This document shows, piece after piece, positions 9,632 through 59,100 of a stretch of DNA of 64,000 nt. The notes beneath the pieces are model-generated. The model made no database searches. It saw only the letters and a program-made list of their open reading frames with translations, and was not told where the DNA came from. The stretch is from Eledone cirrhosa (Eukaryota): NCBI GenBank assembly GCA_964016885.1, contig OZ024741.1, forward strand, positions 126,976,001 through 127,040,000. Direction: 5' to 3'. The position numbers and the translations under genes are program-made. Positions within the stretch are counted from its first letter, which is position 1. The number at the start of each line of letters is the position of its first letter.

Positions 9632-9675
9632 ACACCACTGACGATGTTGCAGATGTGCAACGAAAGATTTATGTA
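9632..9675 (+). ncRNA. Hammerhead-like motif in the PLE pLTR (copies at about 13773-13816 + and about 8292-8335 -)
   Basis: CTGACGA-t-gttgca gatg tgcaac-GAAA-gatt-TA; core and stem II are good, stem I is weak. Confidence 0.6.
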
Positions 9676-14027: not shown

Positions 14028-14074
<47 letters not shown>

Positions 14075-17682: not shown

Positions 17683-17721
<39 letters not shown>

Positions 17722-17748
17722 CTGTGTGTCTGTGTGTGGGTGTGTGTT

Positions 17749-17822
<74 letters not shown>

Positions 17823-18267
17823 AATTTCTTTTTACTTAAAAAATAAAAAGGGGGCACGCGAAGGCTTTTTTTAATAAACGTAATTTGATTGGTTATAAAT
17901 GAAATTATGGCTGTCACGTGAACAAGTTTTCATTAAATTTTCGCGCCCTTATTTGGAAATCTATTCTGTAGCCTATTTAGAGAATTTTATGACAAGCAAA
18001 AGATAATGGTCAAGGGAAATGGGATGGTAGAATTGTTCTGGTTCGGTGAATATGGTTAGTTCGCTGGGGTGTCAGAATTCAGATTTTCTATTGAATAAAG
18101 AAAGTAAAGATATGTATGTTTATTTGTGTGTGTGTGTGTGTGTGTATTGGAAGATGATTCTCTTCGTAGAAATGGGGGAGGGAGTTGTGTGTGTGTTTAT
18201 GGGTGTTATGTGTGTGTGTGTGGGAGTATGGTTAGCATGTTAAGATGAAGAGAATATATATATATAT

Positions 18268-18349
<82 letters not shown>

Positions 18350-20620
18350 TGTGTGTGTGTGCGTGCGTGTGTGCGTGCGTGTGTGTGTGTGTTTGTGTGT
18401 GTGTGTAGGAAAATGATTCCTTTAGTAGGAATATTTTTGAATGAACATATTTTCCTTACTTATTCGTATTTGTTCTCTTGTATTGTCAGTGCAAACGTAT
18501 GTTAAGGTTTATTTAGTTCGGGTTTTTATTTTCTAAAGTAGAAGGTGTTATGTGTGTGTGTATGTGTCTGTTTGGATGGTTAGCATGTTATGGTGTTGAC
18601 AATGTATATTAAACCATATTTAATGCTGGTCTATATTTTTGAATAAACATATTTTCCTTATTTATTCGTATTTGTTCTGTTGTATTGTTAGCGCAAAGGT
18701 AAAATGGGAAGACTTGGAATTTGGGTGTCTTATTACTTGCGCATATGTCTAGATGTGCACTTAGTGGTATCTGTCTCGTGGTTGGATCTCGTAATTGTTG
18801 GCGATGAACTGTCATTCTGTTTCTGAGTGTGAGTTTAGTTTGTCCTATATAATCTTCATTGCATCCTTTATATTTAATGGCATAAATTAAATTTTTTGAT
18901 GAGCAAGTGAAGTGATTTTTTACAGTAAAATTTTGTCCTGATTTAAATGTATACGTGTTGCCTTCAATGAGGTGAGTGCAGGTTCCACAATTAGAGCGAC
19001 CACATTTTTTGACACTTGGTTGTGGGTTTGTGGTAGGTAATTTGGCATTGGTGAGTAATGTTTTCAGTGATTTCGGTTGTCTTTTGCTTTTGATTATTTT
19101 GTGTTTCAATGGCTTTTTTCATTCTTGGGTTTTGTTTTAGTAGTGGGATGTTCTTGTGAATAGTGTTGTAAGCTTCCGCATTTCTTGGGTTGTGTGTTGA
19201 GATATATGATAGAATATTGGACGTACCTTGAATTTGTTTCTGTTTTCGTAATTCATCAATGCCTATTGCTTTAGTCCTTTCTATTCCATTATGTATTAGT
19301 AATAGTGGGTACTCTCTTTCGAGTAGAATTTCCTTTAATTCTTGAAGTCTTTTATTTCGCGTTTCATAATTGGAGACAATTGTGCAAATTCTTCTTGCTA
19401 GGTTAAAAGGAATGTTCGTCTTCGTGTGCTTTGGATGTTTGGAGGTGAATAGCAGGTATTGTTTGGAATCTGTTGGTTTGTAGTGTATGTCAGTTTCAAT
19501 ATTTGTGTCTTTTTTAAAGATTAAGATGTCCAGAAATGGGAGTTGATCTTGGCTGTATTCCATTGTGAATTGGATGTGGTTATTGATGCCGTTTATTAAG
19601 TTTTTGAAATCCTTCAGTTGGTCGAGTGTGTGGGACCAAAGAATGAGACAATCAATTCTCTGATAAATATTTGTGGAAGTTCAATCCGTATTTTGATTTT
19701 GACTGTTCATATATCTGGACTTCTAAGTATGCCATGACTAAGTTGGCATAAGTTGAAGCGGCTTTTGTACCCATCGCAGTCCCCGATGTTTGCTTGTAAG
19801 TACTGCCATCGAAATCAAAAAAGTTGTTCTGTAAGATCAATTTTAATCCCTAGGTGATGAAGCTTTTTTCTATTCTGTCTGGTATCTCATTGGGATATTT
19901 CTCTAGCCAGAATCCTATTCCTTCTAGTCCGTATTGGTGTGGGATCGTTGTGTAGAGATTCACTACATCGAAAGACACAATAATAGTGTCGTTGTTGACA
20001 TGTTTGGGGAGGTGGTTTAAGAGGTCCAGATCGTCTCTTACAAGGCTTGGTATGTGTTTGAGAATTGGTTTTAGTAGTATGTTTATAAAGTTGCTCAGTC
20101 TGTGTGTTTCACATTGTGGGCCCGCTACAATTGGTCTTAATTTAAGGTCTGTGGGGTATTATGTGTTGACGCAGGCTGAGGTGGATTGTTTACAGGCATC
20201 CTTAATTATTTTACACTTGTGGATCTTCAGAAGTCTGTAAAGGTTGCTGGTTTTGTATTCAAAATGTGTTAAATAATCGCGTTCTTTTTTAGTTAGGTCT
20301 TCCTGGTATCGATAAATCAGTGTGTTTAATCTGGTCATTGTTTTTGATTGCTGGTAGTTTTTTACTCTTTCATAGTAATTAGTATTTTGTAAGAGAGATA
20401 ACATAGAATTTTTATATTTTTCAGCCTCCATAATGACAACAGTACTTCCCTTGTCCGCTTCCTTAATTATAATGTCCGTATTGTTTTTTAGTTCATGGAT
20501 AATCTCCCATTCGCTACGACTTGTGTTGGGTTTGGGTTTAGGTTGCGGTAGTTCATGGTATTTTTTTTTTTAAGTAAAAAGAAATTCAAACACACACACA
20601 CAACACACACACACAACACA

Positions 20621-20651
<31 letters not shown>

Positions 20652-21288
20652 GCCAAGCACACAAATAAACATACATATCTTTACTTTCTTTATTCAATAG
20701 AAAATCTGAATTCTGACACCCCAGCGAAGTAACTATATTCACTGAACCAGAACAATTCTCCCATCCTATTTCTCTTGACCATTATCTTTTACTTATCATA
20801 AAATTCTCTAAAAATGCTACAGAATAGATTTCCAAATAAGGGCGCGAAAATTTAATGAAAACTTGTTCACGTGACAGCCATAATTTCATTTATAACCAAT
20901 CAAATTACGTTTATTAAAAAAAAAGCCTTCGTGAGCCCTCCTTATTTTAAAGTAAAAAGAAATTCAAACACTCATATATGAAAAAACAACCTGTGACAAC
21001 CCCCCCCCCCCCCCGCTTGTTTGAAGAAATTTGTAACGCGAACTGGCGCGAAATTTACTATAATTATTGACCAACCAATCAAATTACTTCTCGAAAAACC
21101 TGGCATTTCGAGCCACTTTTTCCATATAAAACAAGTAACATTCAGAGACCAACTAGATGTGAGAAAAACCATAGACCCTCCATCTCAACTCTACTTTTGA
21201 AAAGCAGAAGAACTGCGAAACCGGTAAAGGAACCAAATAAATATATATATATTTTTTAAAATAAGACTCCAGTTGCATTTTCGATTTC

Positions 21289-21293
<5 letters not shown>
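16975..21293 (-). mobile_element. Degraded Neptune-like PLE with 3' UTR (16975-18608, internally duplicated) and an inverted 3' UTR copy at its 5' side (about 20570-21293)
   Basis: Minus-strand frames give ADKGSTVV, KIHK, GTAMGTKAASTYANLVM, LPFLDI, YKPTDSKQYL...HPKH...IPFNLARRI, KCGRSNCGTC, NLIYAI...YIGQT. About 17050-17840 is the reverse complement of 20570-21290. Several frameshifts, and the YxDD region is deleted near 19650. Confidence 0.9.
21192..21231 (+). ncRNA. Hammerhead with U3-A8 core (mirror copy 17109-17148, - strand)
   Basis: ctt-TTGAAAA-gcag aagaa ctgc-GAAA-ccgg-TA-aag; palindromic stem III ACCGGT. Confidence 0.65.
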
Positions 21294-23165: not shown

Positions 23166-23228
<63 letters not shown>

Positions 23229-23235
<7 letters not shown>

Positions 23236-23568
23236 AGATCAAAAGATGGTTAAAGGAGTTCCATGTATTTTATTATGCGCATTTCAAAATCAAACATCAT
23301 CATGCAATAATATTTGTGTTTTCATCAGATAAAACAGGAGAACATGATATGAAGGCTAAAAAACAATTGTGGATAGTGCAGTTTTAAATCAACATATTGA
23401 TATGTTGATTTAAAACTGCACTATCCACAATTGTTTTTTAGCCTTCATATCATGTTCTCCTGTTTTATCTGATGAAAACACAAATATTATTGCATGATGA
23501 TGTTTGATTTTGAAATGCGCATAATAAAATACATGGAACTCCTTTAACCATCTTTTGATCTTATATTA
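23229..23568. repeat. Fold-back palindrome (about 169-bp arms) in (TA)n; right arm extends unpaired to about 23654
   Basis: Centre caacatat-tg-atatgttg; arms reverse-complementary. Confidence 0.92.
23461..23531 (+). ncRNA. Type I hammerhead ribozyme (mirror copy 23266-23336, - strand)
   Basis: tgttttat-CTGATGA-aaacacaaatatta...tgatgtttgatttt-GAAA-tgcgca-TA-ataaaata; palindromic stem III ATGCGCAT. Confidence 0.85.
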
Positions 23569-23650
23569 TGTATACTCCAGTCCTACAAACTGTAGGGTGC
23601 TTCTTATCCGATATCTGCATTGCTTTATTGTACTACAATAAAACTCACCT

Positions 23651-23732
<82 letters not shown>

Positions 23733-24393: not shown

Positions 24394-24424
<31 letters not shown>

Positions 24425-24514
24425 AGTATATGTTGGTTATTTACCGACACCTCAGTATGCAGATTGGAGCACTCGACCAAGTACGCAGGTTGGTTTGGTT
24501 ACTCCGGAGTAATG

Positions 24515-24852
24515 TAAAATAAAGTAATTAAGTCAAATATTTAAAATTTGGCTTCGTTTATTAAAGATGTACTGCTATATATATTTCGGTGACAGCCATC
24601 ATTGGCTGTGACCTCTTCAGGCAGACCGAATTGGTGATTCCAGTTCCTCAGAGAAATAACAACCCAACCAGGAGCTGGACATATCGGAGTATTGACGGAG
24701 TAAAACACTTTAACAACATGTGTACCTGTCTCTACCACACCAATTCGGTCTGCCTGAAGAGGTCACAGCCAATGATGGCTGTCACCGAAATATATATAGC
24801 AGTACATCTTTAATAAACGAAGCCAAATTTTAAATATTTGACTTAATTACTT

Positions 24853-24859
<7 letters not shown>
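24515..24859. repeat. Inverted repeat (about 122-bp arms, about 100-bp spacer) in (TA)n
   Basis: 24515-24636 is the reverse complement of 24738-24859. Confidence 0.9.
24750..24802 (+). ncRNA. Type I hammerhead ribozyme (mirror copy 24572-24624, - strand)
   Basis: ctgc-CTGAAGA-ggtcacagcca atga tggctgtcacc-GAAA-tatata-TA-gcag. Confidence 0.85.
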
Positions 24860-24944
<85 letters not shown>

Positions 24945-28505: not shown

Positions 28506-29741
28506 AGCTGGTGGGAAATATGGAAGTGTGTAAGCCATACTTGTTTGTTTCATAAAGTAAGGAAACACTTTAGTTTCACTTTCAGTATTAGAAAACATTT
28601 ATAAACTTGATCCGTTTATTTAAGGAACAATAAAATAATTGTTTCTACTTTTGGCACAAGGCCAGCAATTACCCAGTGCATTACTGGTACTTTATTTTAT
28701 CGACCCCGGAAGGATGAAAGGCAAAATCAAATAAAATAATGAGACATGAAAAGTATTGTAATGTATGAACATTCGTCGGTTTCGACGATGAATGTTCCAG
28801 TTTTTCGATTAATGGAATAACCTACTCATGGCATTATTGTGTAAGTGGCTAAATATTCTATGGATGGCCTCTATAGTCCTATAATTCCTGAAGGAGCCAT
28901 AGGGGTGCCGCATTGACATCTGGCGTTTCTAGAGCCTTCCTTTAAAACTGGCGGAACCAATCCCTTCTCCAGGTCTGAATACAGAAGATTTCTTCCGAAG
29001 AAGGATCGAGAGTGAGAGAGAGGAAGTGAGAAAGAGATATAGAGAAAAGATCAACCCTAGGACTAGACAGTTACGTTTTTTATCGACCTTCAATGGATGA
29101 AAGGCAAAGTTGATCCTGGTGGGGTTTGAACTCAGAGAACAAACAGCCGAAACGAATACTACAATGCATTCTATCTGATGTTCTAACGTATTCGCCACCT
29201 ATACAGATACTTTTACTCTGAACATAATTCTCAATGATGTTTAGTCTGACATGGTATGTGACAAGATAGCCATTTGAATTACTGTATATCTAACAGGATA
29301 CCAAACAGTTGCTTTCTACTCTATTTCCTTCACAAATAGGTCGACCAGAGTCTATGGTAAATGACACTTGCCTAAGATTCTACGCAATGTGATTGAACCT
29401 GGGTCCTAATAATTGCGAGGCGAATAGGTTAATGTTTATGTTGAGAGATATTTTTTTTAATACAGGAGTTTTAAACTTTCTAATCGATACGATGGATATG
29501 AACACACACACACACACACACATGTCTATGTATACATATGTGTGTGTGTGCATATATATATATATATGTATGTGTGTATGTGTGTGTGTTTATGTATGAG
29601 TGTGTGTGTTTGTGTGTCTGTGTTTATGTATATATTTATATATATGTATGTGTGTATGTGTATTTATAAGAATAACAATATGCGAATATATCATTTGTTT
29701 GATTATTACATGATACAATTGTTCATAATATACATATATAC

Positions 29742-30208: not shown

Positions 30209-33200
30209 CTGTGAACGAGTGATTGTGAGTGCCTCTATACAGTCGAAATACATTTCGGTGCGTGACGTGTCATCACTTTATTATGAGTTCAATACTTGAT
30301 CGTGTTTCACTTTTTTGACGAAAACATATAAATAATAGATCTGAGACCTATATAATCTTGGTCATTATCTTTGTTGCCTTCGTCGTTATCGTCGTCTTTG
30401 CCAACACTGTTATCGTAGTAATCATTATCCTCTTCATTTTGCGTCTATTCCTTCTTATTGACATAGGTTGGATAGGTCTATAACCATCATAGCGTTTCAT
30501 TGTAAGGTTCAGCAACAGAAGATCAGATATCGCCATGATTTTCCACCTTTTTTCTTCAGTTTTCCTCTTCTGAATTTTTATTTTCATTCCACTTTGATTA
30601 TTTCACCCAACTTAACCCAACTGCCATACTTTCTACATATCACATTTTCATACTTACACACTGACACTGAATCCTCTAATGCTCATTGTTTTACCTTCGG
30701 CTTACTTTTCTTCTGTCGGTCACGCATATGGATTGCGTACATCCAACAGATCTTTCTCGGCTCACTTCAACTATTTCCAACCAACACATATTCTTCATAT
30801 TCATTTCCCATATTATATAAATGTCTCACTTCGCACACAGTCATGTCATTTAACCCTTTACACAGCAAACCACCTGGAACCGCCGCCCCCGTATCTACAA
30901 TACAAAACTCTATATTTTGAAGTGTTTATATTTGCTCAAAAATCTTCCATCATAATTTTGTGTAATAAGCTTTGTGATGTTCGAAGTACAAGCATAATGA
31001 AAAAATTATATTATCAAATTCTTATATTTCTATATTTCTCGAAATTCTTGATTTTCAAAACGATTCGAAAACCATAGGCAGTGTCTTTCATTAGAAATAT
31101 GTTAATAAAAAGTTTAGAGTTTAAAAAGTTTAGAGTCTATATTTCTCTAAAACCATACCATCATAAATTTAAGAACCTTTTTCTTCTAGACAGGTTAATA
31201 CTGAGAAAGCTGGTTATATTATTAAATCATTCAAATTTCTTGATTAACATGAAAATCGTAGGCAGTGTATTTCATTAGAAATAAAAGGGTTTATATTTAT
31301 TTAAAAACCTTCCATCATAACTTTATGCAAGAACCTTTCTTAAATTATCTGTATATGTGTGTCTTTATACGTAAATATGTGTAGATAGCGACCAATGTTA
31401 GCGAGTGGTGAATATTTTTGACTAACTAGTAGGTCGTGCTCTTTATAGTGAATCATCCAATCTGGTCCAGATGTTTCATTGTTTTCCTAGTATTTATGGC
31501 TGGACTTTAATCTCTCACACCTCAATTATTTATTTATTTAAACAATTTAATCGTCTGTGTAGAGCTGGTAAGCCATGGCAGACTCGATCGATAGAATAAT
31601 CGACAAGATCCCAGACCTCATTCGCTTACCGAGTGGAGTGGAACTCGTCAAATCGGACCAAGAAAACAATGTTTCCATTGGTCTTTCCAGTTACTGATAT
31701 TATCTGCCGGTCGCAACTCCTGGCAGAAAGAGCAACAGGAAATAAAGTGTCTTACTGAAGGACATAACAAATCGCCCGATCCTGGAATCGAACTTGCAAC
31801 CTCACGATTGCGAATTCACTTCACTAATTACTTAACCATGCGCCTTCACAAAGGCAGATGGCAGACTAGTATGAATGTGTAGACTGGTAACCCCTGTTAG
31901 AGTCGTAAGGGCACCTTGGTGACATACAGCGTGACATGGACATTTTTTTTAAAACCTCTCCATCTCCTCTCTAAGATTGAATACAGCTGATTTCTTCCTG
32001 AGAAGGCGGGTGGAAAATAAGGGTGATAGAAAGGATGTTAGAAGGAGATATAGAGGAAGAATCGACCCAGTACTCGACTGGTACTCCTTTATCGATTTCG
32101 AAAGGATGAAAGGCAAAGTTGACCTCAGTGGGTTTTGAACTCTGACCTCAGAGAACCTGAACGATTACTGCAAAGTATTCTATCCAACTTTTTAACGACT
32201 CTACCAGTTCGAGGCCTTCAAGACGGACAGGGGGGATATCTAATATCTCTTCTATATAGCTGGTAAACGATGACAGGTTTGGAGAGGCATATAATACCCC
32301 TGTTTAGAAACATAAATGAGAGAGAGACACAGAGAGGGGAACATGAGGCAAAAGCAAAAATAAGAAAAAGGTGGAAAAATACACAACTAAAAAGTTAATA
32401 TTTCTGTTATTGAATCATTTCGTAGCCTCCATGTATTGGAAGATCTTATCTATAGTTCCTAGATCTTTGACAAAATATTGCAACTCCAATCCTAGTTGTT
32501 ATTTTTTAAAGATTATTTTCATATCTAGTAGGTTTTACATAGGAACAATAATGGTTTCTACTTTTCTACATTTGGCACATGGTCAGTAATTTGAAGGGAA
32601 GTAGATAATCGATGACACGACATCAGTGCATTACTGGTATTTAATTTTATTGACCTCGTAAGGATAAAAGGAAAAGTTAACCTCGACGGGGTTTGAACTC
32701 AGAACGTAAAGGGCCGTATGCCGCAATACTGCCTATCCACCGCCCTGGAACAAATAATCCCATACGGTTTCTGGATAGTCTTCACGGGAACATAGAGGGC
32801 GTTTCATTCTATCTCTTGTTTCTATGGCCAAAACTATTAATCTCACACAGCTTATTAATAGCTACCAAATGTTATCGCAGGCTATAGACAGGGACCCCAT
32901 CCAGAGAAAAGATCGGGTGGGGTTCATCTTTTTATCTGCTAGAGGTTGCGTAATCCGAAACAAATTCGCAATTAACTTTATGCACTCCTGTACCGAACGA
33001 TATAAATCATCATCATCGTTATCATCATATTCGAGGACACCACCACCACCACCACCACCACCAATAGCATCGTTATCGTCTTCGATAATCACCACTCCCG
33101 CCTTTATCATCAGTCCCATCATCCAAAATCATCCTTTATATGGATAAATTTACTTTACACACACGTGTATGTATGTTCAGACAAATATATATACACACAT

Positions 33201-33474: not shown

Positions 33475-33521
<47 letters not shown>

Positions 33522-33648
33522 CGGAGGAAATGTGGTAAGGAATCAGGTGGACCATAACGCACCAAAGTACTCAATACTTAGGGTAGTACAGTGGGTAATA
33601 GGAACGAGTAGGACCCCGACGGCTGAGCTCAAGCCGTTTCGACGTTCC

Positions 33649-34523: not shown

Positions 34524-37018
34524 GTGGGAAAGTAAAAAATCGGAGAATAGACCGTTAAAACATGTTTATTTAAAATATCACCTACGTACGTTTCGCCCAG
34601 TTGGGCTTCTCAAGGGCATAAATAATCACAAGTGTTGCTTATATTGCTCGGAAAGAGTTTTGGGGGTTAAATCCAAATCAAGGTTCATTGCTCGCAAAAA
34701 TATCTTGTTTTGATTTTGCAGCAGGTCAAGGGAGGTAACTCTGGCCGGTGTTAGGGCAGTCTTTCCCGGACAATTTTTTTTTTTGTTTTTTGCCGCATCC
34801 GTTTGTCTGAGGCTGGGTCTGGTATGCAAGGATTGTTTAGTGGGTGTTATTTTGCAGCGCCTGCCCGCCGGGGTGTTAAGACTTGTTGCAGGGAGATCCA
34901 GTGTACTATTTCACTCTTCATCCTTAACCCATCTGAAGAAGGATATTTTTAAGCGATGTGTACAACTTATCGCTGTTTCAGCTCTGCTGTTGATGAGCTC
35001 GTGGGGTGCAGTTATGATGTGGTAGAGCTCCATGAGGCAAAGATCGCATTTCTTCTTGAAGTTGTACGGTGCAGCCCTGCCGACAATCTCCCAGTGCGTG
35101 GAGAAGCTGATGTTTAAGTCCTTTAGTGATGTGATGTAGTCCGCGAGCGAAGTGGAGTGCCTTAGTTTTCTATTTGTGAAAGAGTGGAGATGTGTTCGAA
35201 ACCTAATTTTGAACGGGCCGGAGGTGGCCCCTATATAATGTTTAACGGTATTGTGGCTAGTAATAGTGCATCTATATATAACCCTATCAGTCAAGCAGTA
35301 TCCCCTAAGGGGGCAGCGTCCTCTGTCGCAGCAGTTGCAATTTCTGTCGCGGTTCCGTCTATTTCCCACGGTAAGGCTATCATTGTTGCTGCCTGCGTTG
35401 TTACCTATGCTACCGCAGCTGTCGTTAGCACCATTACAACCCACAGCACTGCGGGATGGTGCGATTGTTATTCCGCACGTCATGTTCTGCATGTTCCCCA
35501 GTCATTTCGCGGTCATTCTGGTTGCGTCTGCGGATGCCGTTGCCAACACTATTGGATGCTGCCAGGGAGTTGTTAAGGCCGATATAGTTATTGTCAGGTG
35601 TAGGTGCGTCTGTGTCGAGGTGCTGTGTCTTGGTGATCTTACTGTGGTTCGTTGTTCCTATGATGTCTGCTAGGTTAGGAGTAGTAGAGAAGGATATTTG
35701 TATATTGTTCCTATTAAGAATTTTTCTATACCTATGGTTGGGCGGGAAGTTCTTCTCTAAGGCTTCGAAGAACATCCGGGGTATGTTGGAGGCCACACTC
35801 CGAGAGTAGGGGGGTGGAACCATAGGACGTTACGGTGGCGATTACGTGTCCTTGTACTTTTGTTACGGGTGGTTCCATCTAAGTGACCGCTCTTATGTGT
35901 GTTAATGCGCAGTCGCCCGTTCGGTGCCCCTTTCACTTTATGCTCGGGTGTACTCTTTCTACCTCTTCCATGTTTATGTACACGAAGATGTTGGTTGGAA
36001 GGCGTTGGTAGTAGGCCGTCGCCTTTGTTGGTTTTGTAATAGGGGAATAGTTTGAGTAATCTACAGTGTTCACCGTCGCCGGGGCCGTGATCTTTGGTGC
36101 GGTTATCTATTCTATTATATCCGACTTCAACGAGGTCGCCGCGTGATCGGTTATAGGTATGGCTTACTATAACGTTAGTTTTATGAGGGGGGGTGGTTTG
36201 TAGAGCTAGCTTTAGGGATGTAGGAAATTCCTCGGTTAAAGCCGGCGCTTATCAGGGCCCTATTGTAGTAATCAGCCGCTTTGTTGAAGATATCCTCATT
36301 GGCGGATAGCCTCGAGATTCTATGTGAGATACTATAGACTATGGAGTTGAGAGTCTGCTTAGGGTGGTTGGAGGCATAATTAATATAAGAGAGGCACTCT
36401 CCAGGCTTATGGTATGGCTTGTATAAGCCCGTACTCAACTCCAGGGTCACGTCCAGGAAGTTGACAACCCTGTGGTTGAGGTCCATAGTTACGGATAGGC
36501 CGTATGACTTAAAGAACCTGTGTATATGTTTGTTAAGGTTCTCTATCCTACGGGGGCTATGGTTCCTAACGGTAAACAGGACGTCGTCCCTATATACACC
36601 TCCTTGTAGGGCCGGTATTTCTTCCCTAAGCTTATGTAGGAGGTATATCCCGACCAGATCAGTTGCTTGCGCTGAGTCACTGGACCCCATCGTGACATAG
36701 AAGTTATCAGGACGGTTGGTTCTGGTCCAGTGGGTGCCTTCGAACTGGATAATGGTTCTACGTGCCGCTAGAATTATGTCTATTTCTTTTTTAGTGAGGC
36801 TAGTGTTAGATCTAGCTAAGATAAGTGCCTTATTTAAGAGTATGGGGGAGATAGAGGCGTAGTAGCTATCTATATCAAACTGGATGAATTTCAGGGTGGC
36901 TTTATCCGGCAACTCGGTGAACTAATTTATGACCTGGTCGGTGTTGCCCCAGAGGCAGACCTTAGCCTTTCTATTAAGCTCGAGTAGTACTCTGTCGAGG
37001 ATCACTTTACTAATCTTT
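34522..37018 (-). mobile_element. 5'-truncated, frameshifted PLE (Hydra-like clade) between (TA)n tracts
   Basis: FIQFDIDSYYASIS, NFYVTMGSSDSAQATDLVG, YRDDVL, NFLDVTLEL, PPPYSRSV, CNCCDRGRCPLRGYC...VIYRC...YIGAT...FKIRF...H, CDLCLME, INSRAE...CTH. Confidence 0.9.
34578..34618 (-). ncRNA. Hammerhead with U3-A8 core in the 3' UTR of the Hydra-like PLE
   Basis: Minus strand: gccc-TTGAGAA-gccc aact gggc-GAAA-cgtacg-TA-ggtg; palindromic stem III ACGTACGT; stem I short. Confidence 0.65.
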
Positions 37019-37182: not shown

Positions 37183-37361
37183 AATCAGGAAAGAAGGTTG
37201 ACATGGTTTGCATTTAACTATTATGGACTGCATTTAACTATTATTTGTTACCCCGTATATATATATATATATATATATATATAACGGAGGAAATGTGGTA
37301 AGGAACAAGGTGGACCATAACGCACCAAAGTACTCAATACTTAGGGTAGTAGAGTGGGTAA

Positions 37362-37482
37362 TAGGAATGAGTAGGACCCCGACGGCTGAGCTCAAGCCGT
37401 TTCGACGGCTAATTCTGGACACCAGTCCAGAATTAGCCGTCGAAACGGCTTGAGCTCAGCCGTCGGGATTCTACTCATTCCT
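37362..37482. repeat. Fold-back palindrome made of the 3' half of a hammerhead (22.7-kb family)
   Basis: aggaatgagtagg...gacggctaattctggac-acca-gtccagaattagccgtc-GAAA-cggcttgagctcagccg-TC-ggga...ctactcattcct. Confidence 0.85.
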
Positions 37483-38545: not shown

Positions 38546-39248
38546 GGGGGGGGAGAATTTCGCTGTATGTATGATAATGATAAACTGAGATGGGAGAGAG
38601 GGAGAGTAAATGTGTATTGTGTGTGTGAGAATGTGTGTGTGTGTGTGCGTTTGTGCGTTTTGCTGTGTATGTATGTGTTTTGCTCTGTCTGTGTGTGAGA
38701 GTAGGTATTTTAATGTGTATGTGAGTGTGTGTGTATGTGTTTTGCTGTGTGTGTATGTATTTTGTTGTGTCTGTGTGTGTGTGAGTGTCTATTTTGCTGT
38801 GTCTGTGAGTGTGTGTGTGAGAGAGAGTGTGTATGTATTTTGCTATGTCTGTGTGAGTGTGTGTGTGTGTGTATATGTTTGTATGTGTATATGTGTTTTG
38901 CTGTGTCTGTGTGTATCGGTATGTGTAAATGTATGTTTGCATATTGGTGTCTGTGTGAATACGTGTGTGTGTGTATGAATGTGTGTATCTGTGTATGTGT
39001 ATGTGTATGTGATTTGTTGTGTTTGTGTGTGTAAGTGTGTGTATGTCTGTGTGTGTGTGTGTTTTCAGATGTGTTTGTGAGTGTGTGTGATGTATGTAAT
39101 CCTGTATATATTCCTATATATATATATATATATATGTTGAAAAAAAATGAAAACGAAATTTCATTTCTCACTCTTAGTATGGCACTTACTTAAATGTAAG
39201 TATGTATGTATACGTACATACATATATGTATACAGACGTACGGTAGCA

Positions 39249-39344
<96 letters not shown>

Positions 39345-39681
39345 TATACACATATGCATACAGGTACACATACATATATGCACGCATCAGTTTAGCCGAC
39401 GTTTATTATAACGCCTGCTTTGTTCGTTTGTTTGTCAACAAATCGAACAGCCTGTACGTCTGTATACATATATGTATGTACGTATACATACATACTTACA
39501 TTTAAGTAAGTGCCATACTAAGAGTGAGAAATGAAATTTCGTTTTCATTTTTTTTCAACTTATCGTTCTCGGTATGCCTGACCGATTTAACTCACTCAAT
39601 ATGCAAATTAGGCTGCTCAGCCGTTAGTTTTCATAAGGAAAGTATATACTTTCGAACATTCAACTATCTGGCAGATGGGTA

Positions 39682-39726
39682 AACGGTGCTGATGATAGCT
39701 AACAAGCTTGAAACTAGTACATCGTT
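39682..39726 (+). ncRNA. Canonical type I minimal hammerhead ribozyme, copy 1
   Basis: aacggtg-CTGATGA-t agct aaca agct t-GAAA-ctag-TA-catcgtt; 7-bp stem I; palindromic stem III ACTAGT; predicted cleavage after GUA at 39719. Confidence 0.88.
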
Positions 39727-39896
39727 CCTGTGTCAGTGTTGAACAAAAAGGTGACGTGGTTGCCTTAACACCGTATGGCATAAATTCAGGCTGTTCGATT
39801 TGTTGACAAACAAACGAACAAAGAAGGCGTTATAATAAACGTTGGCTAAACTGATGCGTGCATATATGTATGTGTACCTGTATGCATATGTGTATA

Positions 39897-39990
<94 letters not shown>

Positions 39991-40224
39991 TGCTACTGTA
40001 CGTCTGTATACATATATGTATGTACGTATACATACATACTTACATTTAAGTAAGTGCCATACTAAGAGTGAGAAATGAAATTTCGTTTTCATTTTTTTCA
40101 ACTTATCGTTCTCGGTATGCCTGACCGATTTAACTCACTCAATATGCAAATTAGGCTGCTCAGCCGTTAATTTTCATAAGGAAAGTATATACTTTCGAAC
40201 GTTCAACTATCTGGCAGATGGGTA

Positions 40225-40269
40225 AACGGTGCTGATGATAGCTAACAAGCTTGAAACTAGTACATCGTT
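40225..40269 (+). ncRNA. Canonical type I minimal hammerhead ribozyme, copy 2
   Basis: Identical to copy 1 and 543 nt downstream; predicted cleavage after 40262. Confidence 0.88.
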
Positions 40270-40439
40270 CCTGTGTCAGTGTTGAACAAAAAGGTGACGT
40301 GGTTGCCTTAACACCGTATGGCATAAATTCAGGCTGTTCGATTTGTTGACAAACAAACGAACAAAGCAGGCGTTATAATAAACGTCGGCTAAACTGATGC
40401 GTGCCTATATGTATGTGTACCTGCATGCATATGTGTATA

Positions 40440-40483
<44 letters not shown>

Positions 40484-40545
40484 TGCTACTGTACGTCTGT
40501 ATACATATATATATGTACGTATACATACATACTTACATTTATATA

Positions 40546-40582
<37 letters not shown>

Positions 40583-40672
40583 TTGTATATATATATATAT
40601 ATATACGTTATTCCGGGTTGAATCGGAGGTAACCACAGTAAGTAAGGTACTCAATACATTGTAGAGTATAAA

Positions 40673-40799
40673 AGTTTTAATATAGAGGAGATTCTACAGG
40701 ACTAGAACTGTTTCATTCTTTAGAAATCATCAAGATTCCTGATGATTTCTAAAGAATGAAACAGTTCTAGTCCTGTAGAATCTCATCTATATTAAAACT
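40673..40799. repeat. Short fold-back palindrome with a truncated hammerhead core
   Basis: Arms of about 60 bp around agattcc; the right arm has CTGATGA-tttctaaagaat-GAAA-cagtt but lacks the 5' strand of stem I. Confidence 0.8.
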
Positions 40800-41350: not shown

Positions 41351-41854
41351 TTTGGTTGTGTGTAATTAGTTCTTTAGACATTTCGTTAGTTCATCTCGGT
41401 ACTGCATCAATGTATCATGTAATGTTGAGAAACACTAAGATGATGTTGCATGTAGCTGCTGCTGTTGCTGCTGCATGTTGCATGTTGCATGCAGCAGCTG
41501 TGTTATTTGATCAGTCTAGATGTTACTGTTGTTGTCATTGCTGCTGTTACTATTGTTGTTTTTGTTATTGTTACTGCGGTTGTTGTTGTTGTTACTGTTC
41601 TCATTGCTGCTGTTACTACTGTTGTTTTTGTTATGTTACTGCGGTTGTTGTTGTTGTTATTATTACTGTTGTTGCTAGGGCGGTGCATTGGCAGTATCGG
41701 TAGAGGGTCGGACGTCATGCTTTACAGCATAGAGTTACGGCCCTTTATGATCTGAGTTCAAATGCCGCCGAGGTCAACTTTGCTTTTCATCCTTACGGGG
41801 TCGATAAAATAAAGTACCAGTAATTGCTGGCCTTGTGCCAACAGTAGAAATAAT

Positions 41855-44345
41855 TATTACTGCTGCTGTTGTTGTTGTTGTTGTTACTGTTGTTGTTGCT
41901 GCTGATTGTTACTGTCGCTGTTATTGTTTCTGTTATTGTTGCTGCTATTTATGTTGCTGTTGTTGTTGTTACTGCTGTTATTGTTACTGCTGTTATTGTT
42001 GTTGTTACTGTTGTTGTTGTTGCTGTTGTTGTTGTTACTGTTGTTGTCATTGTTGTTGTTGTTGTTACTGTTGTTGTCATTGTGCTGTTGTTGTTACTGT
42101 TGTTGTCATTGTTGCTGTTGTTGTTGTTACTGTTGTTGTCATTGTTGCTGTTGTTGTTGCTGTTGTTGTCATTGTGCTGTTGTTGTTACTGTTGTTGTCA
42201 TTGTTGCTGTTGTTGTTGTTACTGTTGTTGTCATTGTTGCTGTTGTTGTTGCTGTTGTTGTCATTGTTGCTGTTGTTGTTACTGTTGTTGTCATTGTTGT
42301 TGTTGTTGTCATTGTTGCTGTTGTTGTCATTGTTGCTGTTGTTGTTACTGTTGTTGTCATTGTTGTTGTTGCTGTTACTGTTGTTGTCATTGTTGCTGTT
42401 GTTGTTGCTGTTGTTGTCATTGTTGCTGTTGTTGTTACTGTTGTTGTCATTGTTGTTGTTGTTACTGTTGTTGTCATTGTTGCTGTTGTTGTTACTGTTG
42501 TTGTCATTGTTGCTGTTGTTGTTACTGTTGTTGTCATTGTTGCTGTTGTTGTTACTGTTGTTGTCATTGTTGCTTTGTTGTTACTGTTGTTGTCATTGTT
42601 GCTGTTGTTGTTACTGTTGTTGTCATTGTTGCTTTGTTGTTACTGTTGTTGTCATTGTTGTTGTTGTCATTGTTTCTGTTGTTGTCATTGTTGCTGTTGT
42701 TGTCATTGTTGCTTTGTTGTTACTGTTGTTGTCATTGCTGTTGTTGTTACTGTTGTTGTCATTGTTGTTGTCATTGTTGCTGTTGTTGTTACTGTTGTTG
42801 TCATTGTTGTTGTCATTGTTGCTGTTGTTGTTACTGTTGTTGTCATTGTTGCTGTTGTTGTTGCTGTTGTTGTTGTTGTTACTGTTGTTGTCATTGTTAC
42901 TGTTGTTGTTACTGTTGTTGTCATTGTGCTGTTGTTGTTACTGTTGTTGTCATTGCTGTTGTTGTTGTTACTGTTGTTGTCATTGTTGTTGTTGTTGTTA
43001 CTGTTGTTGTCATTGTTGCTGTTGTTGTTACTGTTGTTGTCATTGTTGCTGTTGTTGTTACTGTTGTTGTCATTGTTGCTTTGTTGTTACTGTTGTTGTC
43101 ATTGTTGCTTTGTTGTTACTGTTGTTGTCATTGTTGCTGTTGTTGTTACTGTTGTTGTCATTGTTGCTTTGTTGTTACTGTTGTTGTCATTGTTGCTTTG
43201 TTGTTACTGTTGTTGTCATTGCTGTTGTTGTTGTTACTGTTGTTGTCATTGTTGTTGTTGCTGTTGTTGTCATTGTTGTTGTTGTTGTCATTGTTGCTGT
43301 TGTTGTTACTGTTGTTGTCATTGTGCTGTTGTTGTTACTGTTGTTGTCATTGCTGCTGTTGTTGTTACTGTTGTTGTCATTGTGCTGTTGTTGTTACTGT
43401 TGTTGTCATTGTGCTGTTGTTGTTACTGTTGTTGTCATTGCTGCTGTTGTTGTTACTGTTGTTGTCATTGTGCTGTTGTTGTTGTTACTGTTGTTGTCAT
43501 TGCTGTTGTTGTTGTTACTGTTGTTGTCATTGTGCTGTTGTTGTTGTTACTGTTGTTGTCATTGCTGTTGTTGTTGTTACTGTTGTTGTCATTGTGCTGT
43601 TGTTGTTGTTACTGTTGTTGTCATTGCTGTTGTTGTTGTTGTTACTGTTGTTATTGCTGTTGTCGGTACTGTTATTGTCGTACTGTTGTTGTTCTTACAG
43701 TTGTTATTGTTACTGTTGTCGTTACTGCTGTGTTACTGCTGCTGTTGATGTTGCTGCTGCTATTGTTATTTGTGTTGCTGCTACTGCTATTGATGTTGCT
43801 GTTGTTGTTGTTATTGAAGTTGTTGTTATTGCTGCTGCTGTGATTGCTACTGTTGTTGTGGTTACTGTTATTGTTACTGTTGTTGTTGTGGTTACTGTTA
43901 CTGTTACTGTTGTTGTTGTTGTGGTTACTGTTATTGTTACTGTTGTTGTTGTTGTTACTGCTGTTATTGTTACTGCTGTTATTGTTGTTGTTACTGCTGT
44001 TATTGTTACTGTTGTTACTGTTGTTGTTATTGTTGCTGTTGTTGTTACTGCTGTTATTGTTACTGTTGTTGTTGTTGTTGTTACTGCTGTTATTGTTACT
44101 GTTGTTGTTGTTGTTGTTACTGCTGTTATTGTTACTGTTGTTGTTGTTGTTACTGCTGTTATTGTTACTGTTGTTGTTGTTGTTATTACTGCTGTTATTG
44201 TTACTGTTGTTGTTGTTGTTACTGCTGTTATTGTTACTGTTGTTGTTGTTGTTGTTACTGCTGTTATTGTTACTGTTGTTGTTGTTGTTACTGCTGTTAT
44301 TGTTGCTGATGCTGTTGTTGTTACTGCTGTCGTTGCTCTTGTTGT
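41855..44345. repeat. (GTT)n-derived minisatellite, about 30-bp unit gttgttgttactgttgttgtcattgttgct
   Basis: About 2.5 kb of cryptic trinucleotide repeat with 1-nt indels that shift frames. Confidence 0.92.
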
Positions 44346-48283: not shown

Positions 48284-49104
48284 ATTATATATGAGAATAT
48301 TAGCACATACTTGGCTCAAATTTGTGGCCATGTGCTTTACAAACAAGGACAATCCGTCATTTTACATCGTGATTTTACTGAATTTGAGAGATTCTATACG
48401 ATGTATAATTGTATTTTATGTATATGATTAAATAAACGTCAATGTAGATAAAATAACTTAGGTCGTTGAGTAAGTTTTTATTATGACCGAAGTTAGCAAT
48501 ACAATAACATTGAGAAATGTCTGAGCATCATATCTTATTGTCCACACTTCTATATAGTTTCGTCGTAGGTTATTTACGACCATTAATTACAACATGTATG
48601 GAAGGGCGGTAGAGCGTCAGACATGATTTGCAGCATAGAGCTATGGCCCCTTGCGTTCTGATTTCAAATCCCACCGAGATTGGCTTTGCCTTTCATCCTT
48701 ACGGGGTCGATAAAATAAAATAAAGCACCAGTAATGCACTGGGGTAATTGCTGGCCCTGGTCCAAAAGTAGAAACAATTAATTACAACACCTTGAGCGCT
48801 TCTACCAGCTCTGCCTTTGCACCAATCTCAACATTCATTGGAGTAACTTTGTTACCAACAAATAAAGCCCTTGTACAAGCAGAGATCAGCAGTATCGTGA
48901 TCATGTGGGATAGTCATGAGATCATCGAATAGAAGGCTTCGTGATAATTGCTTTGGCTCTTCGCACTTTCAGTTTTAATGTCGTCAGTCGAGGTCAACTT
49001 TGCTTTTAATTATTTTGAGGTCGATAAATATAGGATCAGTCCAGAACTGGGGTCGATTTTTCTATATATCTTTTTCACTTCCTCTCCCTTACTCTGTATC
49101 TCTC

Positions 49105-52475: not shown

Positions 52476-53459
52476 ATGCTCACACATGCGCGCATACACA
52501 CATCTGTGTGTAGACATATGTTTAGTAACAGGTGTATACACGGTCACTGTTCTCCATAATAAATAGTGATATATATAATGCCTCTGTCTGTGTGTGTATG
52601 TGTGCGTGAGTGTGTGTATGTGTGCGTGAGTGTGTGTATGTCTGCGTGTGCGTGTGTGTGTACCGAATTATAATTCTATAACCTGTTAATGATAATTGTT
52701 TCTACTTTTGGCACAAGGCCAGCAATTTACCAGTGTATTACTGGTACTTTATTTTATCGACCCCCGTAAGGATGAAAGCAAAGTTAACCTCGGCGGGATT
52801 TGAACTCAGATCGTAAAGTGACGCAACTACGCTGGAAAGCATGTGTGACCCTCTACCAATACTCCCAGTTCACCGCCCTTAATGATAATACATTGTAACT
52901 TCGAGTTTCATTCTAAGCAAATATCCGCGTGATATGCGGTATTATATGAAGCTTTTGGCAATGCATTTAATTTTAAAGTTTTAAAGAGTGCGGTTAGTTC
53001 ATAAAATATTAATACAGCTGGTGTGCACCATTGTGATCAGTTGAAATTATTTCAAAATGTATGAAATGAAAGCCACACAAAATATATATAAATATATATA
53101 TATATAAAATATGAAATCAGGAAAAAGGAGATAAAATATAACATAAAATGAAAGAAAAAATTGTTGATTATATGGGCATCAGTAGAGAAAGTTAAGTATC
53201 AGGAACGGCTGTAATGTTTATAAGCTGCTGTAGCAAGTGCAGATAATGGGAATGTTTTTAATAAATAGTTAAATATAAAATCCTTCTGTTATATGGGAAA
53301 AGATTTGAAAATGTCAAAATGAACATTTTCTATTAATGGAAATGTACCATTGTATTTAATTGTTGTTCTACGTGTGCAGTTAGACTCATTATATAGTTAG
53401 TTTACATGCCATATGGTATTACTGCTCCTATTAAATCTTTCTGTCATGGTGACTGATTT

Positions 53460-53680: not shown

Positions 53681-53929
53681 CTTAAAACTATTAACTCATA
53701 ATTCATGACAGGAAAGCCCAAATACTAACAAAATATATCTTGCAGTTATTTCAATAACATGTTACATATTGGGTATGAAACTTACAAGCAATTAATACGA
53801 TGATGTTTTATATCATATTAAGAAGACCTGAAAAACAAACACAGAGCATGGAATAGGTTTGAACAAAGAAGTTTCGCACGTGGACACAGGCATCATATTT
53901 GATGATGAATTTTACCCGCCCTAGAAAGA

Positions 53930-53971
<42 letters not shown>

Positions 53972-53973
<2 letters not shown>

Positions 53974-54460
53974 TAAAATAACAGATTAAAGTTTAAGCAA
54001 AGAATCGCTGCTTTCACCCTTAACGGGATCTTCTGAAACTAACAAGGTCAATCTGTGAACGCAGAAGTGAATATTTCAAAAAACGTTGCAACCGGAGGAA
54101 GACAGGAAGACGATACTTTGGTTCGTGGAAACGTTCCCTGGCAAAGAACGGGGAAAAACGAATATAATACGTCATTATTTGGAGCGGTGAAAAACAATTA
54201 CACGCAAAGACAAAACCACGTTTATGGTATAAAAGAAGTCGTAGACTATTGCAACGTTTTTTGAAATATTCACTTCTGCGTTCATAGATTGACTTTGTTA
54301 GTTTCAGAAGATCCCGTTAAGGGTGAAAGCAGAGATTCTTTGCTTAAACTTTAATCTGTTATTTTAATAAATATTTGCTCTACGGTTCTTATATATTTGA
54401 TATATATTTATCCTTATCGAGCCCTCTTTGGATTTTAGTCTTCAAATTTATTATTATTAC
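53972..54460. mobile_element. Inverted pair of 3' UTR/pLTR pieces of the 15-16.7 kb PLE family
   Basis: 53972-54248 is the reverse complement of about 16328-16605; 54249-54460 is a direct copy of about 16484-16695. Related pieces lie at about 22845, 23885, 47430 and 63860-64000. Confidence 0.85.
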
Positions 54461-54483
54461 TATATATATATATATATACATAT

Positions 54484-55100
54484 ATGCTGAATATAAAACC
54501 TTCTCCCAATCTCCATGTCTCCTCCGATAAAACCAAAAACGTTTATGAGGTAGACCCACAAACCTATAATAAGCTGGCAAAAAATGCCATCACGAACATC
54601 TACAAAAAGGTAAATGAGATGGCATTGACTGAGACAAATGCGGCCGGAAAAGAAATCGCTAAATCCCTTAAATTACACGACCGAACCGAACCTTTAAGGG
54701 TAAAGACCCCGCACTTTACCCTGAGGACCACAAGAGAAATTTCCTCAACAAACCATCAGTTAGACTTATCAATCCCACACGTTCGGACATCAGCTCTATC
54801 AGTGAAAAGATCCTCGATAGAGTTCTACCATCATTGCGGGCTGCCTCACCACTCCCACTCTGGAGCAGAACATCTGAGGCAATATCTTGGTTCCAAGAAT
54901 TGCCTGACAAACGCCACACTCGCTTCCTGAAACTTGACATAGAAAACTGCTATGTTTCTATCTCAGAGCCCCCCCCCCCCCCCCAAAGGACGCACTTACT
55001 TTTGCCAGGAATTTTACCACCATAACTGACGCTGAGCAAGATGTTATCCTCCATGCCCGTAAGACCTTCCTATACCACGAGGGATCTTACTGGATGGAAT
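54484..55100 (+). pseudogene. Hydra-like PLE RT N-terminal fragment, frameshifted
   Basis: SSDKTKNVY...YNKLAKNAITNIYKK...FTL/DHKRNF...VRLINPTRSDIS...LWSRTSEAISWF...FLKLDIENCYVSIS. Confidence 0.8.
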
Positions 55101-55637: not shown

Positions 55638-56152
55638 GCATATAATATGATATACGAGTATGCACGTACACAAAAGAGGGGTTCATAGATTCCCACTCGT
55701 ACATAGATTTACATTCGTATTTGTGTATATTGTGATTGCACTTCTCTACTGCAACTAGTAGTTTCACCATTATGATGGTCACAATATGAACACCATTCAC
55801 TACGTAGTAACATATTTTTGAACATGATGAGAGAATATAGCAGCTGAGATGAGTATGAAACATCATAGCATACTTCGCCCGTTCTCTTGAAACTTAAAGC
55901 ATTACAAGGATAAAATAATGGTTTCTACTTTAGGCACAAGGCCAACAGTTTTGGGGGAAAGGAGAAGTCGATTAAATCGACACCAGTGCATTACCGGTAC
56001 TTTATTTTATCGACCCTGTAAGGATGAAAAGCAAAGTTAACCTCGGTGGGATTTGAACTCAGATCATAAAGGGCCGTAACTCTATGCTGCAAAGCATGTT
56101 GTCCGACGCCCTACTAATACTGCCGATCAGCTGCCCTCACCGAACATAAAAT

Positions 56153-59100
56153 AATTCTTTCTTTATTAACCACAAGGGTTGACACAAAGTATAACATTAA
56201 GGACAACACAGGACAATACAAATGGGCATTTCTGCATGTAAAAAACAAAAACAGAGTGTGACAAAAGGAAACAATGAAAAGTTCCCAATAGGGGGAGACC
56301 TCCGAGGGTTGCTCGTGGAGAAAGACCACAAGAAAAGCCATGGTTAGCCTGACAAATGCCCTCTTCCAGTTTTCCTCTTACAATGCTACAGGCACACGCT
56401 CGGGATAGACCCATTCACACGGGCCATTCTTTCCTCTCTCACCCACCTTTCAACAAACTGGCTGGAGGTCAGCACTTCCCTCTCCGCCCTGATTTTCCTC
56501 TTCAGGTGAAACCTGGAAAGGTTAATGAGGGCGTCACCGGCAGATAAAATCTGCCTGCCCTTCTCGGCTAAAGGAAGGCGGCGAGGCAATCTTCACGATG
56601 GACTCAGCTGATAGCCGGATCCGTTCTACACGTGACAGCAGGTGTTCGGCATAAACCCAGAAATCAGCAATGCTCGGACGCTGGACGAGTGCGTGCAGGA
56701 CAGTTTCATCGCCCTGTGCGCATCTCAGATAGGCTCGGCTGACGGCACTTCTATGCCTGTAGAGTTTATCCCGAACTGGCAAAGCTCCTCCGTAGCACTG
56801 CCAGGCCAGGGATTTCTGGAAATTGTCCATGGGCCCCGGCCCGAAAGTTCTCCCGAACGGATTGGCTAGTTGGTTTACGTCGACGCCTAGAGTCTCCCCA
56901 AGGAAGTCGTTGCTCTTTCCTTCCACTAATCCTCTATAGAAAGCCAAGGTGGAGTTTCCAGCGATTGTATTGCTCGACTGGTCGAGGGCTGTAAGCGCCT
57001 GAAGACATTCTAGTCTCCAAGCGCTTGCTCTCGGTCTTCGCTTGACCCAGGACTGCAACTCCGCCAAGGAGACGAGCAGAGTAAACATGTGTCTAGCAAA
57101 GGGCGACCACACCTGATCACCGTCGAAGAAGAGGTGGAGATGCCGTAGCCTGAGCGCATGTCTGCGCATCATTAGCCATGGCATGGCCAGCCCTCCGCGT
57201 AGCGGGTGTTGACAGCAGATGGACCGCCTGACCATCGGAGCACGTCTCTTCCACAAAAAGCCAAAGAACAAACGCTCCAGTGCAGTCAGGCGAGGCTTAG
57301 GACAAGGCTCGACGGTCAGGCGGTAGTATATGACGGACGCGATGTACGCATTCTCCACCTCCACTCGACCTTTCTGGGATAGCTTCCTCTCGGCCCATTT
57401 ATGGGTGAGAGAAAACAACTTGCACGTGGCCTACTCCTAGTTTTTGTCCGTCTGGAGGTCCGGACCGAACCAGACCACTAGCAATTTAACCGATCCGTCC
57501 GCCAGAGCCCAACGACCCTGTTAGGCGGCATGGACTTGCCTCTCCAGGTGCTGAGTTGAAGGCTTACTGATTTTTCCTGGTTGATCATTGCTCCTGTCAC
57601 TACCTCGTATTCTCTTAGTGTGGTACCGATTGCCTCGATGTGTTTGGTGTTCGACACCACTACGGTGATGTCGTCTGCATAAGCTGACACTTTTCTTCCG
57701 CATACTAGTTCACGTGGGATCTCCTTCAATGTCTCCAGTTTGTGCAGTAATGGCTCAAGAGTCAATACGTACAAAAAGGATGAGAGAGGACATTCCTGGC
57801 GCTTATCGAGCGCATGATGTTGAACGGTTCCGAAAGGTGACCGTTCACTCTCACTACAGAGCAGATATCGCTGTGCATGGTAGCAATCCAGCCTCTGAAG
57901 ATAGGCCCAAAGCCAGCTGCTCTTAGGACTGCTGCCAGATACGATGGTCGACCCTATCGAAAGCTTTTGACTGATCTAAATTGATCAAAGACCCACCCAT
58001 ACCAGGTTCCCTAGCTACCCTTTCTACGATGTATCGCATGAGATGGAGGTTGTCGTGGATGGATCTGTTTGGAATGGCGCATGTTTGCGCCTCTCCCACC
58101 AGACCACCAACGACAAGCGCCAACCTCTTTGCTAGCACCTTAGCCAAAATTTTGAAGTCTGTGTTTAGCAGAGTTATGGGCCTGGAATTTTCTGTTATTC
58201 TCCTTGTTCTGATCCTTTCTCAGCAGCGCCACCGCTCCTCGGCTCACAGAGCTGGGAATTCTCCCGTTCTGCTGCCAGTTGCAGCAGACGTCTGCCAAGA
58301 GGTCTTCGAACAAGTCTGGCATATGTATGTAAAATTCGTAGGGCAGACCATCCAAACCAGGCGATTTACCCAGTGTGCAGCTAGTCATTGCCTCCCGTAC
58401 TTCAGCAGCTGTTATCCGACTTTCGCAACACTCCGCCTCAATTGCCGAGAGCCGCGACAGTCCGTCGAGGTAGGCATTGAAGTCCATTCCACGATGCGGC
58501 TCGTCATTGCCCCGGAACAGCTGAGCAAAGTGCTGCTGAAAAGCCGCATACATCTGCCCGGGATCGAATATCATGTGCCCGTCGTGGTTCGCCAAAGACC
58601 GGATCGTGGCTTTGTTGCCACGACGCGCCTCCGCCACCTGGGCCCATTGAACGGCTTTTGACCCTCGTGTCTGAGAGCACGCACCCTAGCTCTGACAACG
58701 CAACTTTCGTGCTTAGCGTTGAAAAATTGATCGAGAGCCAATTTCGCCGCAAGTACGTCGGTCGCGAGGCCTTTACTAAGCGCCTCGTCTAATTTCTTAA
58801 CTAGATTTCCTTCTCCTCTATTTTTCTCTGTTACTAGCGCTTTACTAAACCTAATGGATTCTATTCTAATCGCTCTCATCAGGGCAAACCACCATTTGTT
58901 GTTGACGATAGCCTGTCAAAACGACGCGTTTAGTTTCCAGTAGCCGGGTTTCTGTCTATGAAGCCTATCTAAGTCAATCACACAGATCACGAATTTGTGG
59001 TCCGTGTAGCTGACTATCTTGAATTGTGGACAGCCTATGCTAGACCTATCTATTTCCCTACAAAATACTCTATCTAGATATAATCTGGATGACCCGAAAC

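Follow-up and report, generated by a model that had tools for sequence, protein, structure and literature searches.

The array and its hammerhead motifs

The window analysed here is a 64,000-nt stretch of the Eledone cirrhosa genome, and the locus under study within it is a tandem of repeat units. Its forward part (39452-40541, plus strand) comprises 2.1 units in head-to-tail order: copy 1 (39452-39995, 544 nt), copy 2 (39996-40488, 493 nt) and a partial third copy (40489-40541, 53 nt), which stops at a right insertion end corresponding to unit position 40048. Copies 1 and 2 differ at six of 448 aligned positions and by one T. Upstream lies an inverted, 5'-truncated copy without a hammerhead (39136-39454, minus strand), which is the reverse complement of 39787-40102 and meets the forward part head to head through a 3-nt CTG microhomology at 39452-39454. 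A preliminary, sequence-only reading of the locus had reported this inverted segment at 39135-39454 together with its ctg joint; the joint stands, while the homology begins one base to the right, at 39136. The array is flanked on the left by a (TA)n tract of 21 nt (39115-39135), inside which a target duplication, even of the larger kind described for some retrozymes, would be indistinguishable, and on the right by a TA-rich tract (40542-40605). The unit also carries a TA tract of its own, measuring 87 nt in the inverted piece (39252-39338), 85 nt in copy 1 and only 35 nt in copy 2 (40446-40480), so that the locus holds a single full 543-nt monomer.

Polarisation with the variants of a public sequencing run (X1, see below) assigns four private changes to copy 1, two to copy 2 and one each to copy 3 and the inverted piece. 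These are small numbers; nearly all differences are nevertheless private, which suggests that the pieces of the array probably arose together. A single site (39242/39997) sets the inverted piece apart from all three forward copies. An assembly artefact was rejected, since the copies bear private changes.

The array had been described as retrozyme-like and lacking coding capacity, and this holds: the 19 ATG frames of at least 30 aa include no credible ORF, all being translations of TA repeats or no longer than 54 aa, and no ORF combining reverse transcriptase (RT) and GIY-YIG domains between pseudo-LTRs lies within or adjoining the array. The predicted monomer has a GC content of 31%, and the units follow each other seamlessly, with an LTR/PBS/PPT layout judged absent from the unit anatomy. 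A bacterial promoter scan was set aside as irrelevant for this host.

A descriptor scan of the window revealed 13 hammerhead-like motifs, seven of them under strict rules, as against a mean of 0.01 and a maximum of one for the strict descriptor in 100 dinucleotide shuffles. The scan confirmed that the array carries two identical type I hammerheads 543 nt apart, as previously noted. The first spans 39658-39744 with its predicted outer helix I (plus strand; core helix I 39682-39726, C3 at 39689) and is predicted to cut after 39719, while the second spans 40201-40287 (plus strand; core helix I 40225-40269, C3 at 40232) with a predicted cut after 40262. The coordinates of the cut-to-cut segment, 39720-40262 on the plus strand, were thereby upheld; its release as a 543-nt monomer and its circularisation are predictions.

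Helix I consists of 7 bp and continues beyond a 3-nt bulge into a long outer stem, predicted to pair 40201-40216 with 40274-40287. Helix II consists of 4 bp stacked on a U·U pair at its base, which the earlier reading had not mentioned, and helix III of a 6-nt palindrome, i.e. one pair and a palindromic tetraloop. The canonical animal motif is described as having a helix I of 6 bp, a helix II of 4 bp and a helix III of 1-2 bp with a palindromic loop, whereas the hammerheads of Penelope-like elements (PLEs) are usually minimal, with a long helix II and a short helix I (PMC4209133). The geometry of the array hammerhead is canonical, not minimal. The assignment to a dimer-type, type I motif with a palindromic helix III is thus retained, and only the label 'minimal' had to be dropped; that type accounts for most other hammerheads of the window, unlike the array motif.

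Rfam returned no match at gathering score over the locus; both copies matched Hammerhead_HH9 weakly, at 18.5 bits and an E-value of 0.2 (cut-off 52), and matches to microRNA families were dismissed as TA and hairpin noise. A 26-nt pattern of the hammerhead core had no match in metagenome and viral contigs. A 16-nt core pattern matched 114 metagenome loci, none of which extended past 35 nt, indicating that these are chance matches. A phage collection yielded no match.

Among axolotl retrozyme motifs, one whose palindromic helix III has a single pair and one whose helix II starts from a U·U pair are both reported to be far more active as dimers (PMC7229834). In constrained folding of 39640-40310, the double hammerhead reached -234.1 kcal/mol, two single hammerheads -229.4 and the unconstrained fold -244.6. 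The dimeric active fold therefore beats two monomeric active folds by 4.7 kcal/mol, and is 10.5 kcal/mol less stable than the free minimum, in which core bases pair with helix III/I. Of the two active forms these models favour the dimer, yet an inactive pairing (probability 0.86) competes with it. One of nine predicted retrozyme dimers of Xenopus cut in vitro in the assays described (bioRxiv 2026.07.22.740005). For naked dimeric RNA of the present unit, the balance tips modestly towards predicted self-cleavage.

RNA fold and variation of the repeat family

Folded as a circle, the unit is predicted to have 71% of its bases paired. Without its TA tract it folds at a z-score of -8.4 relative to shuffled sequences, and the segment 40056-40396 at -5.9 when read on the strand of the hammerhead, compared with -2.5 on the opposite strand; for three stretches used as comparison the values were -1.3, -3.0 and -0.7, the first of these belonging to the spacer of the PLE-like ORF of the window. 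The TA-like sequences flanking the tract (39854-39877 and 40006-40029) are predicted to pair in a 24-bp stem with five G·U pairs, which closes the 85-nt TA tract of copy 1 (39903-39987) into a rod (39854-40029, plus strand). The energy of this stem is -34.3 kcal/mol on the plus strand as against -16.9 on the minus strand. The tract is present in all three copies that span its place, and hence was already in the template. We infer that it forms a structural arm of the unit, as the fold models suggest, rather than a target scar of the present event. The earlier reading had remarked on an internal (TA)n tract, the PLE target here, as unusual; the tract belongs to the unit, and a role as priming site was rejected because neither insertion end falls inside it.

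Four public sequencing runs (X1, X4, X20 and X24) were aligned on 39988-40435, a stretch that leaves the TA tract outside. Run X1 contained 4,783 variant contigs, with 1,131 at 99% identity or above, 1,587 at 95-99%, 1,781 at 90-95% and 284 below. Depth was present in 26 of 30 bins, and the fraction of contigs running into unlike sequence was 0. The library type of this run is not on record and its summed depth does not equate to copy number; this spread of variants implies either a high number of copies or an abundant RNA of very mixed composition. Judged by these variants, the unit belongs to a large multi-copy family. This supports the multi-copy family implied by the first account, at the level of unit contigs rather than of ORF-less tandems.

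The variation respects the predicted RNA structure. When 18 variant rows were set against the predicted circle, 14 fell on unpaired positions, two kept a pair and two broke one. With the row found mainly in X4 dropped, the 17 rows that reach at least 8% in X1 gave two pair breaks where 6.2 were expected (P 0.007), the fold being derived from the window sequence and the null model ignoring CpG bias and relatedness. Each pair break, moreover, is accompanied by a nearby change of similar frequency that re-forms a pair (40172/40174 at 0.54/0.54; 40340/40341 at 0.91/0.94), and the two changes of each couple appear to be linked. Between C3 and the cut site (C3-H17), variation in X1 is confined to N7 (40236) and loop 2 (40246). 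The change 40225 A>T, present at 35% in X1, shortens helix I, and one X1 subfamily, seen in one loose end, is additionally altered in helix I, on the 5' strand, with the partner change unseen. At 40111, 40340 and 40341 the window copies bear alleles seldom found in X1, which implies that X1 represents another mix of subfamilies or a relative. The 7 loose ends inspected, of 103 in X1, resemble variants of the unit. A more diverged subfamily was also observed beside the main one (X4 record 10; X1 loose ends at 40088 and 40130).

Across 20 public runs (15 studies, 16 organism codes), none of them recorded as RNA, 0.30-0.77 of the unit's words were recovered. Run X4 held two contigs at a depth of 3.6-5.6, run X20 had no unit contigs in about 44% of the run, and run X24, consisting of raw reads and sharing its organism code with run X7, had none in 1.9 Gb. 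With X4 shallow and X20 and X24 empty, these four runs do not support horizontal spread; the word matches in other organism codes are probably trace DNA of an abundant repeat.

The insertion footprint and neighbouring elements

The insertion ends of the array correspond to unit position 40048 on the right and, in the inverted piece on the left, to unit position 40102. The 54 nt between them (unit 40049-40102) are present at the inverted end (39136-39189, minus strand) and missing at the right end, and we read this one-sided stretch as a PLE tail by analogy with published insertions (PMC8557442, PMC11167929). Indeed, the marks described for PLE insertions are a partial tandem, an inverted truncated head, a tail and a bias towards microsatellites (PMC8557442, PMC3846280), and the TA tracts on both sides of the array are the kind of microsatellite or AT-rich target expected of such insertions. 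The PLE protein is reported to cut and extend both strands, to prefer AT-rich DNA and to start at two internal sites whose distance equals the tail (PMC11167929). Inverted head, 54-nt tail and TA target thus support the earlier suggestion of a PLE as the likely mobiliser.

This footprint is not peculiar to the array. Ten of the 11 window regions checked have inverted arms, the array included, and six other insertions that were measured have one-sided tails of 91, 37, 78, 90, 79 and 67 nt adjoining a TA or GA tract. The inverted head and tail recur in unrelated families of the window, which points to the insertion process as their source. The array does differ in that its ends lie 329 and 383 nt past the cut site, compared with a distance of 22-125 nt to the end of the arm in five neighbours. 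Evidence of PLEs in the same window includes a GIY-YIG domain at 18612-19118 (Pfam, E-value 1.5e-6) beside RT-like frames and inverted repeats; no helper was found in the window. No end sequence in common with an autonomous PLE was found within the 64-kb window, where a BLAST search of the locus returned only TA-like matches outside itself.

A number of other elements populate the window. Directly adjoining the array is a separate insertion (40606-40799, plus strand) with a type I hammerhead (C3 at 40739, cut at 40777) whose helix II again rests on a U·U pair and whose helix III is 4 bp long. This hammerhead lies in a 127-nt palindrome, and the insertion has a 67-nt one-sided tail. Four palindromic microsatellite insertions (1250-1717, 1877-2301, 23223-23652 and 24422-24862), representing three or four families, each carry a pair of opposed hammerheads together with a tail of 37-91 nt on one side. 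A palindromic stump at 37284-37482 has a 79-nt tail, which resembles 40606-40672 (76% over 25 nt) and 33521-33644 (97%), and an apparent 3' half-hammerhead with a long helix III.

One PLE-like element (8244-14036) has a partial tandem (8545-9314), an inverted head (8244-8548), hammerhead cores at 8329 (minus strand), 9638 and 13779, and a frame of 1193 aa (9922-13503) with an Asn-rich insert, in which RT-like and GIY-YIG-like motifs were read by eye and the RT catalytic motif looks altered. This ORF had no match in Pfam or among PDB sequences; its PLE identity leans on the by-eye motifs and on weak pairwise similarity (E-value 0.003) to the window's GIY-YIG frame. The broken PLE that contains the GIY-YIG domain (17051-21290, minus strand) has RT-like frames up to 20569 and is flanked by inverted repeats of ~620 nt, in which the hammerhead core is altered (17319, 21021). 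Further PLE-like frame fragments with related ends occur at 14786-16656, 34911-36921, 53921-55025 and 62753-63994. The window also holds a broken LINE-like element (56534-61059, minus strand), within which lies a sub-threshold endonuclease-family match at 58919-59383, and a SINE-like repeat of ~150-190 nt in at least seven copies (5863-6018, 28631-28725, 32535-32718, 41677-41860, 48607-48785, 52692-52879 and 55902-56127).

Origin of the array and relation to known elements

We consider it likely that the ORF-less 543-nt tandem is a non-LTR retrozyme that was moved by the protein of an autonomous PLE into a TA microsatellite. In the mechanism we propose, self-cleavage, circle, helper and priming sites being predicted components, a read-through RNA would fold both motifs into a double hammerhead, their palindromic helices III pairing mutually, and would be cut after 39719 and 40262, whereupon a host ligase such as RtcB might close the 543-nt piece. 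The PLE endonuclease would nick both strands of the (TA)n target, and reverse transcription would start within the unit at two sites, unit 40048 and unit 40102. One cDNA would run for ~2.1 units across two hammerhead sites and the other for 316 nt, and the truncated cDNA ends would be joined through CTG.

The forward part crosses two cut sites, and the template was therefore longer than one monomer. This bears out one half of the initial idea that a circular or multimeric RNA was reverse transcribed. The other half, in which the inversion was taken as a sign of a circle, was rejected: the inverted head is part of the ordinary PLE footprint and routine in such insertions, so it says nothing about a circular template. 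In the only PLE studied in vitro, uncut RNA is described as the main template (PMC11167929), and for this reason an uncut multimer accounts for the tandem no worse than a circle would. The two come out nearly level, the multimer slightly ahead; birth of the tandem by duplication after insertion is less likely. A fuller scheme would combine rolling-circle reverse transcription by a PLE protein, through 2.1 turns of the 543-nt circle, with a second primer 54 nt off, a (UA)n rod as structural arm and a family that is very abundant in its host. As a whole this combination is doubtful, but if true, its two mapped priming sites would let the mobilisation of retrozymes by PLEs be tested directly.

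In the leading alternative, an abundant autonomous PLE would be the parent and the unit its pseudo-LTR region, the array being a rare ORF-deleted by-product and the X1 variants deriving from the ends of the parent. The spacer between the tandem copies of the window's PLE-like ORF is indeed of similar build, measuring 559 nt and containing short TA runs as well as a hammerhead core, but it is unstructured (z of -1.3) and its motif is of the minimal type, as PLE hammerheads usually are (PMC4209133), whereas that of the array is canonical. Dispersed animal hammerheads are described as mostly the ends of truncated PLEs (PMC4209133); plain 5' truncation, however, leaves a single hammerhead and not a seamless pair of units. 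An ORF occupying the position of the TA tract would escape notice, given that the tract lies outside the stretch aligned with X1. Against this, the flanks of the tract pair in the 24-bp G·U-rich stem, no X1 contig runs into unlike sequence, and the 7 loose ends inspected, of 103, look like variants of the unit. On this evidence we regard a pseudo-LTR origin as improbable.

More improbable still is the insertion of a single monomer that was later duplicated or inverted at the DNA level, through slippage, unequal exchange between TA tracts or template switching, with the hammerhead as a mere minisatellite passenger. The unequal TA tracts (87, 85 and 35 nt) and the site 39242/39997, which splits the inverted piece from the three forward copies, would suit such a history, and local amplification has been favoured for the birth of tandems (bioRxiv 2026.07.22.740005). 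The changes are almost all private, however, so that copies 1 and 2 resemble the inverted piece no less than they resemble one another; moreover, the inverted head and tail are also found in unrelated families of the window, and X1 variation respects the RNA fold. As for movement by a LINE (RTE, CR1 or L1/Tx1) through twin priming, with the array as a SINE-like passenger, 5' inversions with microhomology occur in L1 and the window holds LINE fragments (the endonuclease-family match at 58919-59383, below cut-off), but the array lacks a poly(A) or LINE-type 3' repeat tail, its inverted and forward parts share ~108 nt of unit sequence, and its one-sided tail and TA target fit PLE insertions, making this scarcely credible.

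Non-LTR retrozymes, the preferred assignment, are known among animals from coral, mussel and axolotl, with units of 150-450 bp in the species described (Cervera and de la Pena 2020, PMC7229834), and have recently been characterised as non-autonomous PLE sequences of 51-972 bp (Li, Clavereau and Pollet 2026, bioRxiv 10.64898/2026.07.22.740005). Like them, the array has a complete type I hammerhead in two consecutive units, no ORF, a GC content below 50% and a monomer predicted to be highly self-paired. Its unit of 543 nt lies above the former size range and inside the latter. It differs in its internal TA rod and in its clear PLE footprint, with cleavage and circle being predictions. At the level of the motif, the one-pair helix III with palindromic tetraloop recalls axolotl HHR_Amex1 and the U·U at the helix II base recalls HHR_Amex2 (PMC7229834), a likeness of published description rather than of sequence; the array differs from both in uniting the two weak features in one motif. 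In the literature searched, which omits most subscription papers, we found no cephalopod retrozyme, and the terms 'ribozyme' and 'retrozyme' are absent from the main text of an octopus repeat annotation (PMC13282606). The same literature gave no account of a PLE footprint on retrozyme arrays, though supplements may list such elements.

With endonuclease-bearing (EN+) PLE insertions the array shares the partial tandem, the inverted 5'-truncated head, the one-sided tail, the microhomology, the TA or AT-rich target and the repeat hammerhead (PMC8557442, PMC3846280, PMC11167929). It is distinguished by the absence of an RT/GIY-YIG ORF, by its canonical hammerhead and by ends far from the cut site; in addition, the EN+ PLE tails reported in these accounts measure 30-40 nt, against 54 nt in the array and 37-91 nt in the window insertions. 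Non-autonomous Chlamys PLEs such as MRC1 are similarly ORF-less, multicopy head-to-tail insertions with pseudo-LTRs (PMC8557442), but are described as having the 3' sequence of a known autonomous family and as mostly devoid of hammerheads, whereas the array has hammerheads and no such partner in the window.

The array defines no novel class of element, and the evidence comes from one locus. It bears on the question of what mobilises animal retrozymes: in the text consulted, a 2020 review states that retrozyme repeats carry no motif indicating a helper (PMC7761336), and the PLE helper has since been argued from co-occurrence in frogs and likeness to pseudo-LTRs (bioRxiv 2026.07.22.740005). To these the present locus adds evidence of another type, an ORF-less tandem with canonical hammerheads that bears a PLE footprint, and its two exact predicted priming sites suit the published in vitro PLE assay.
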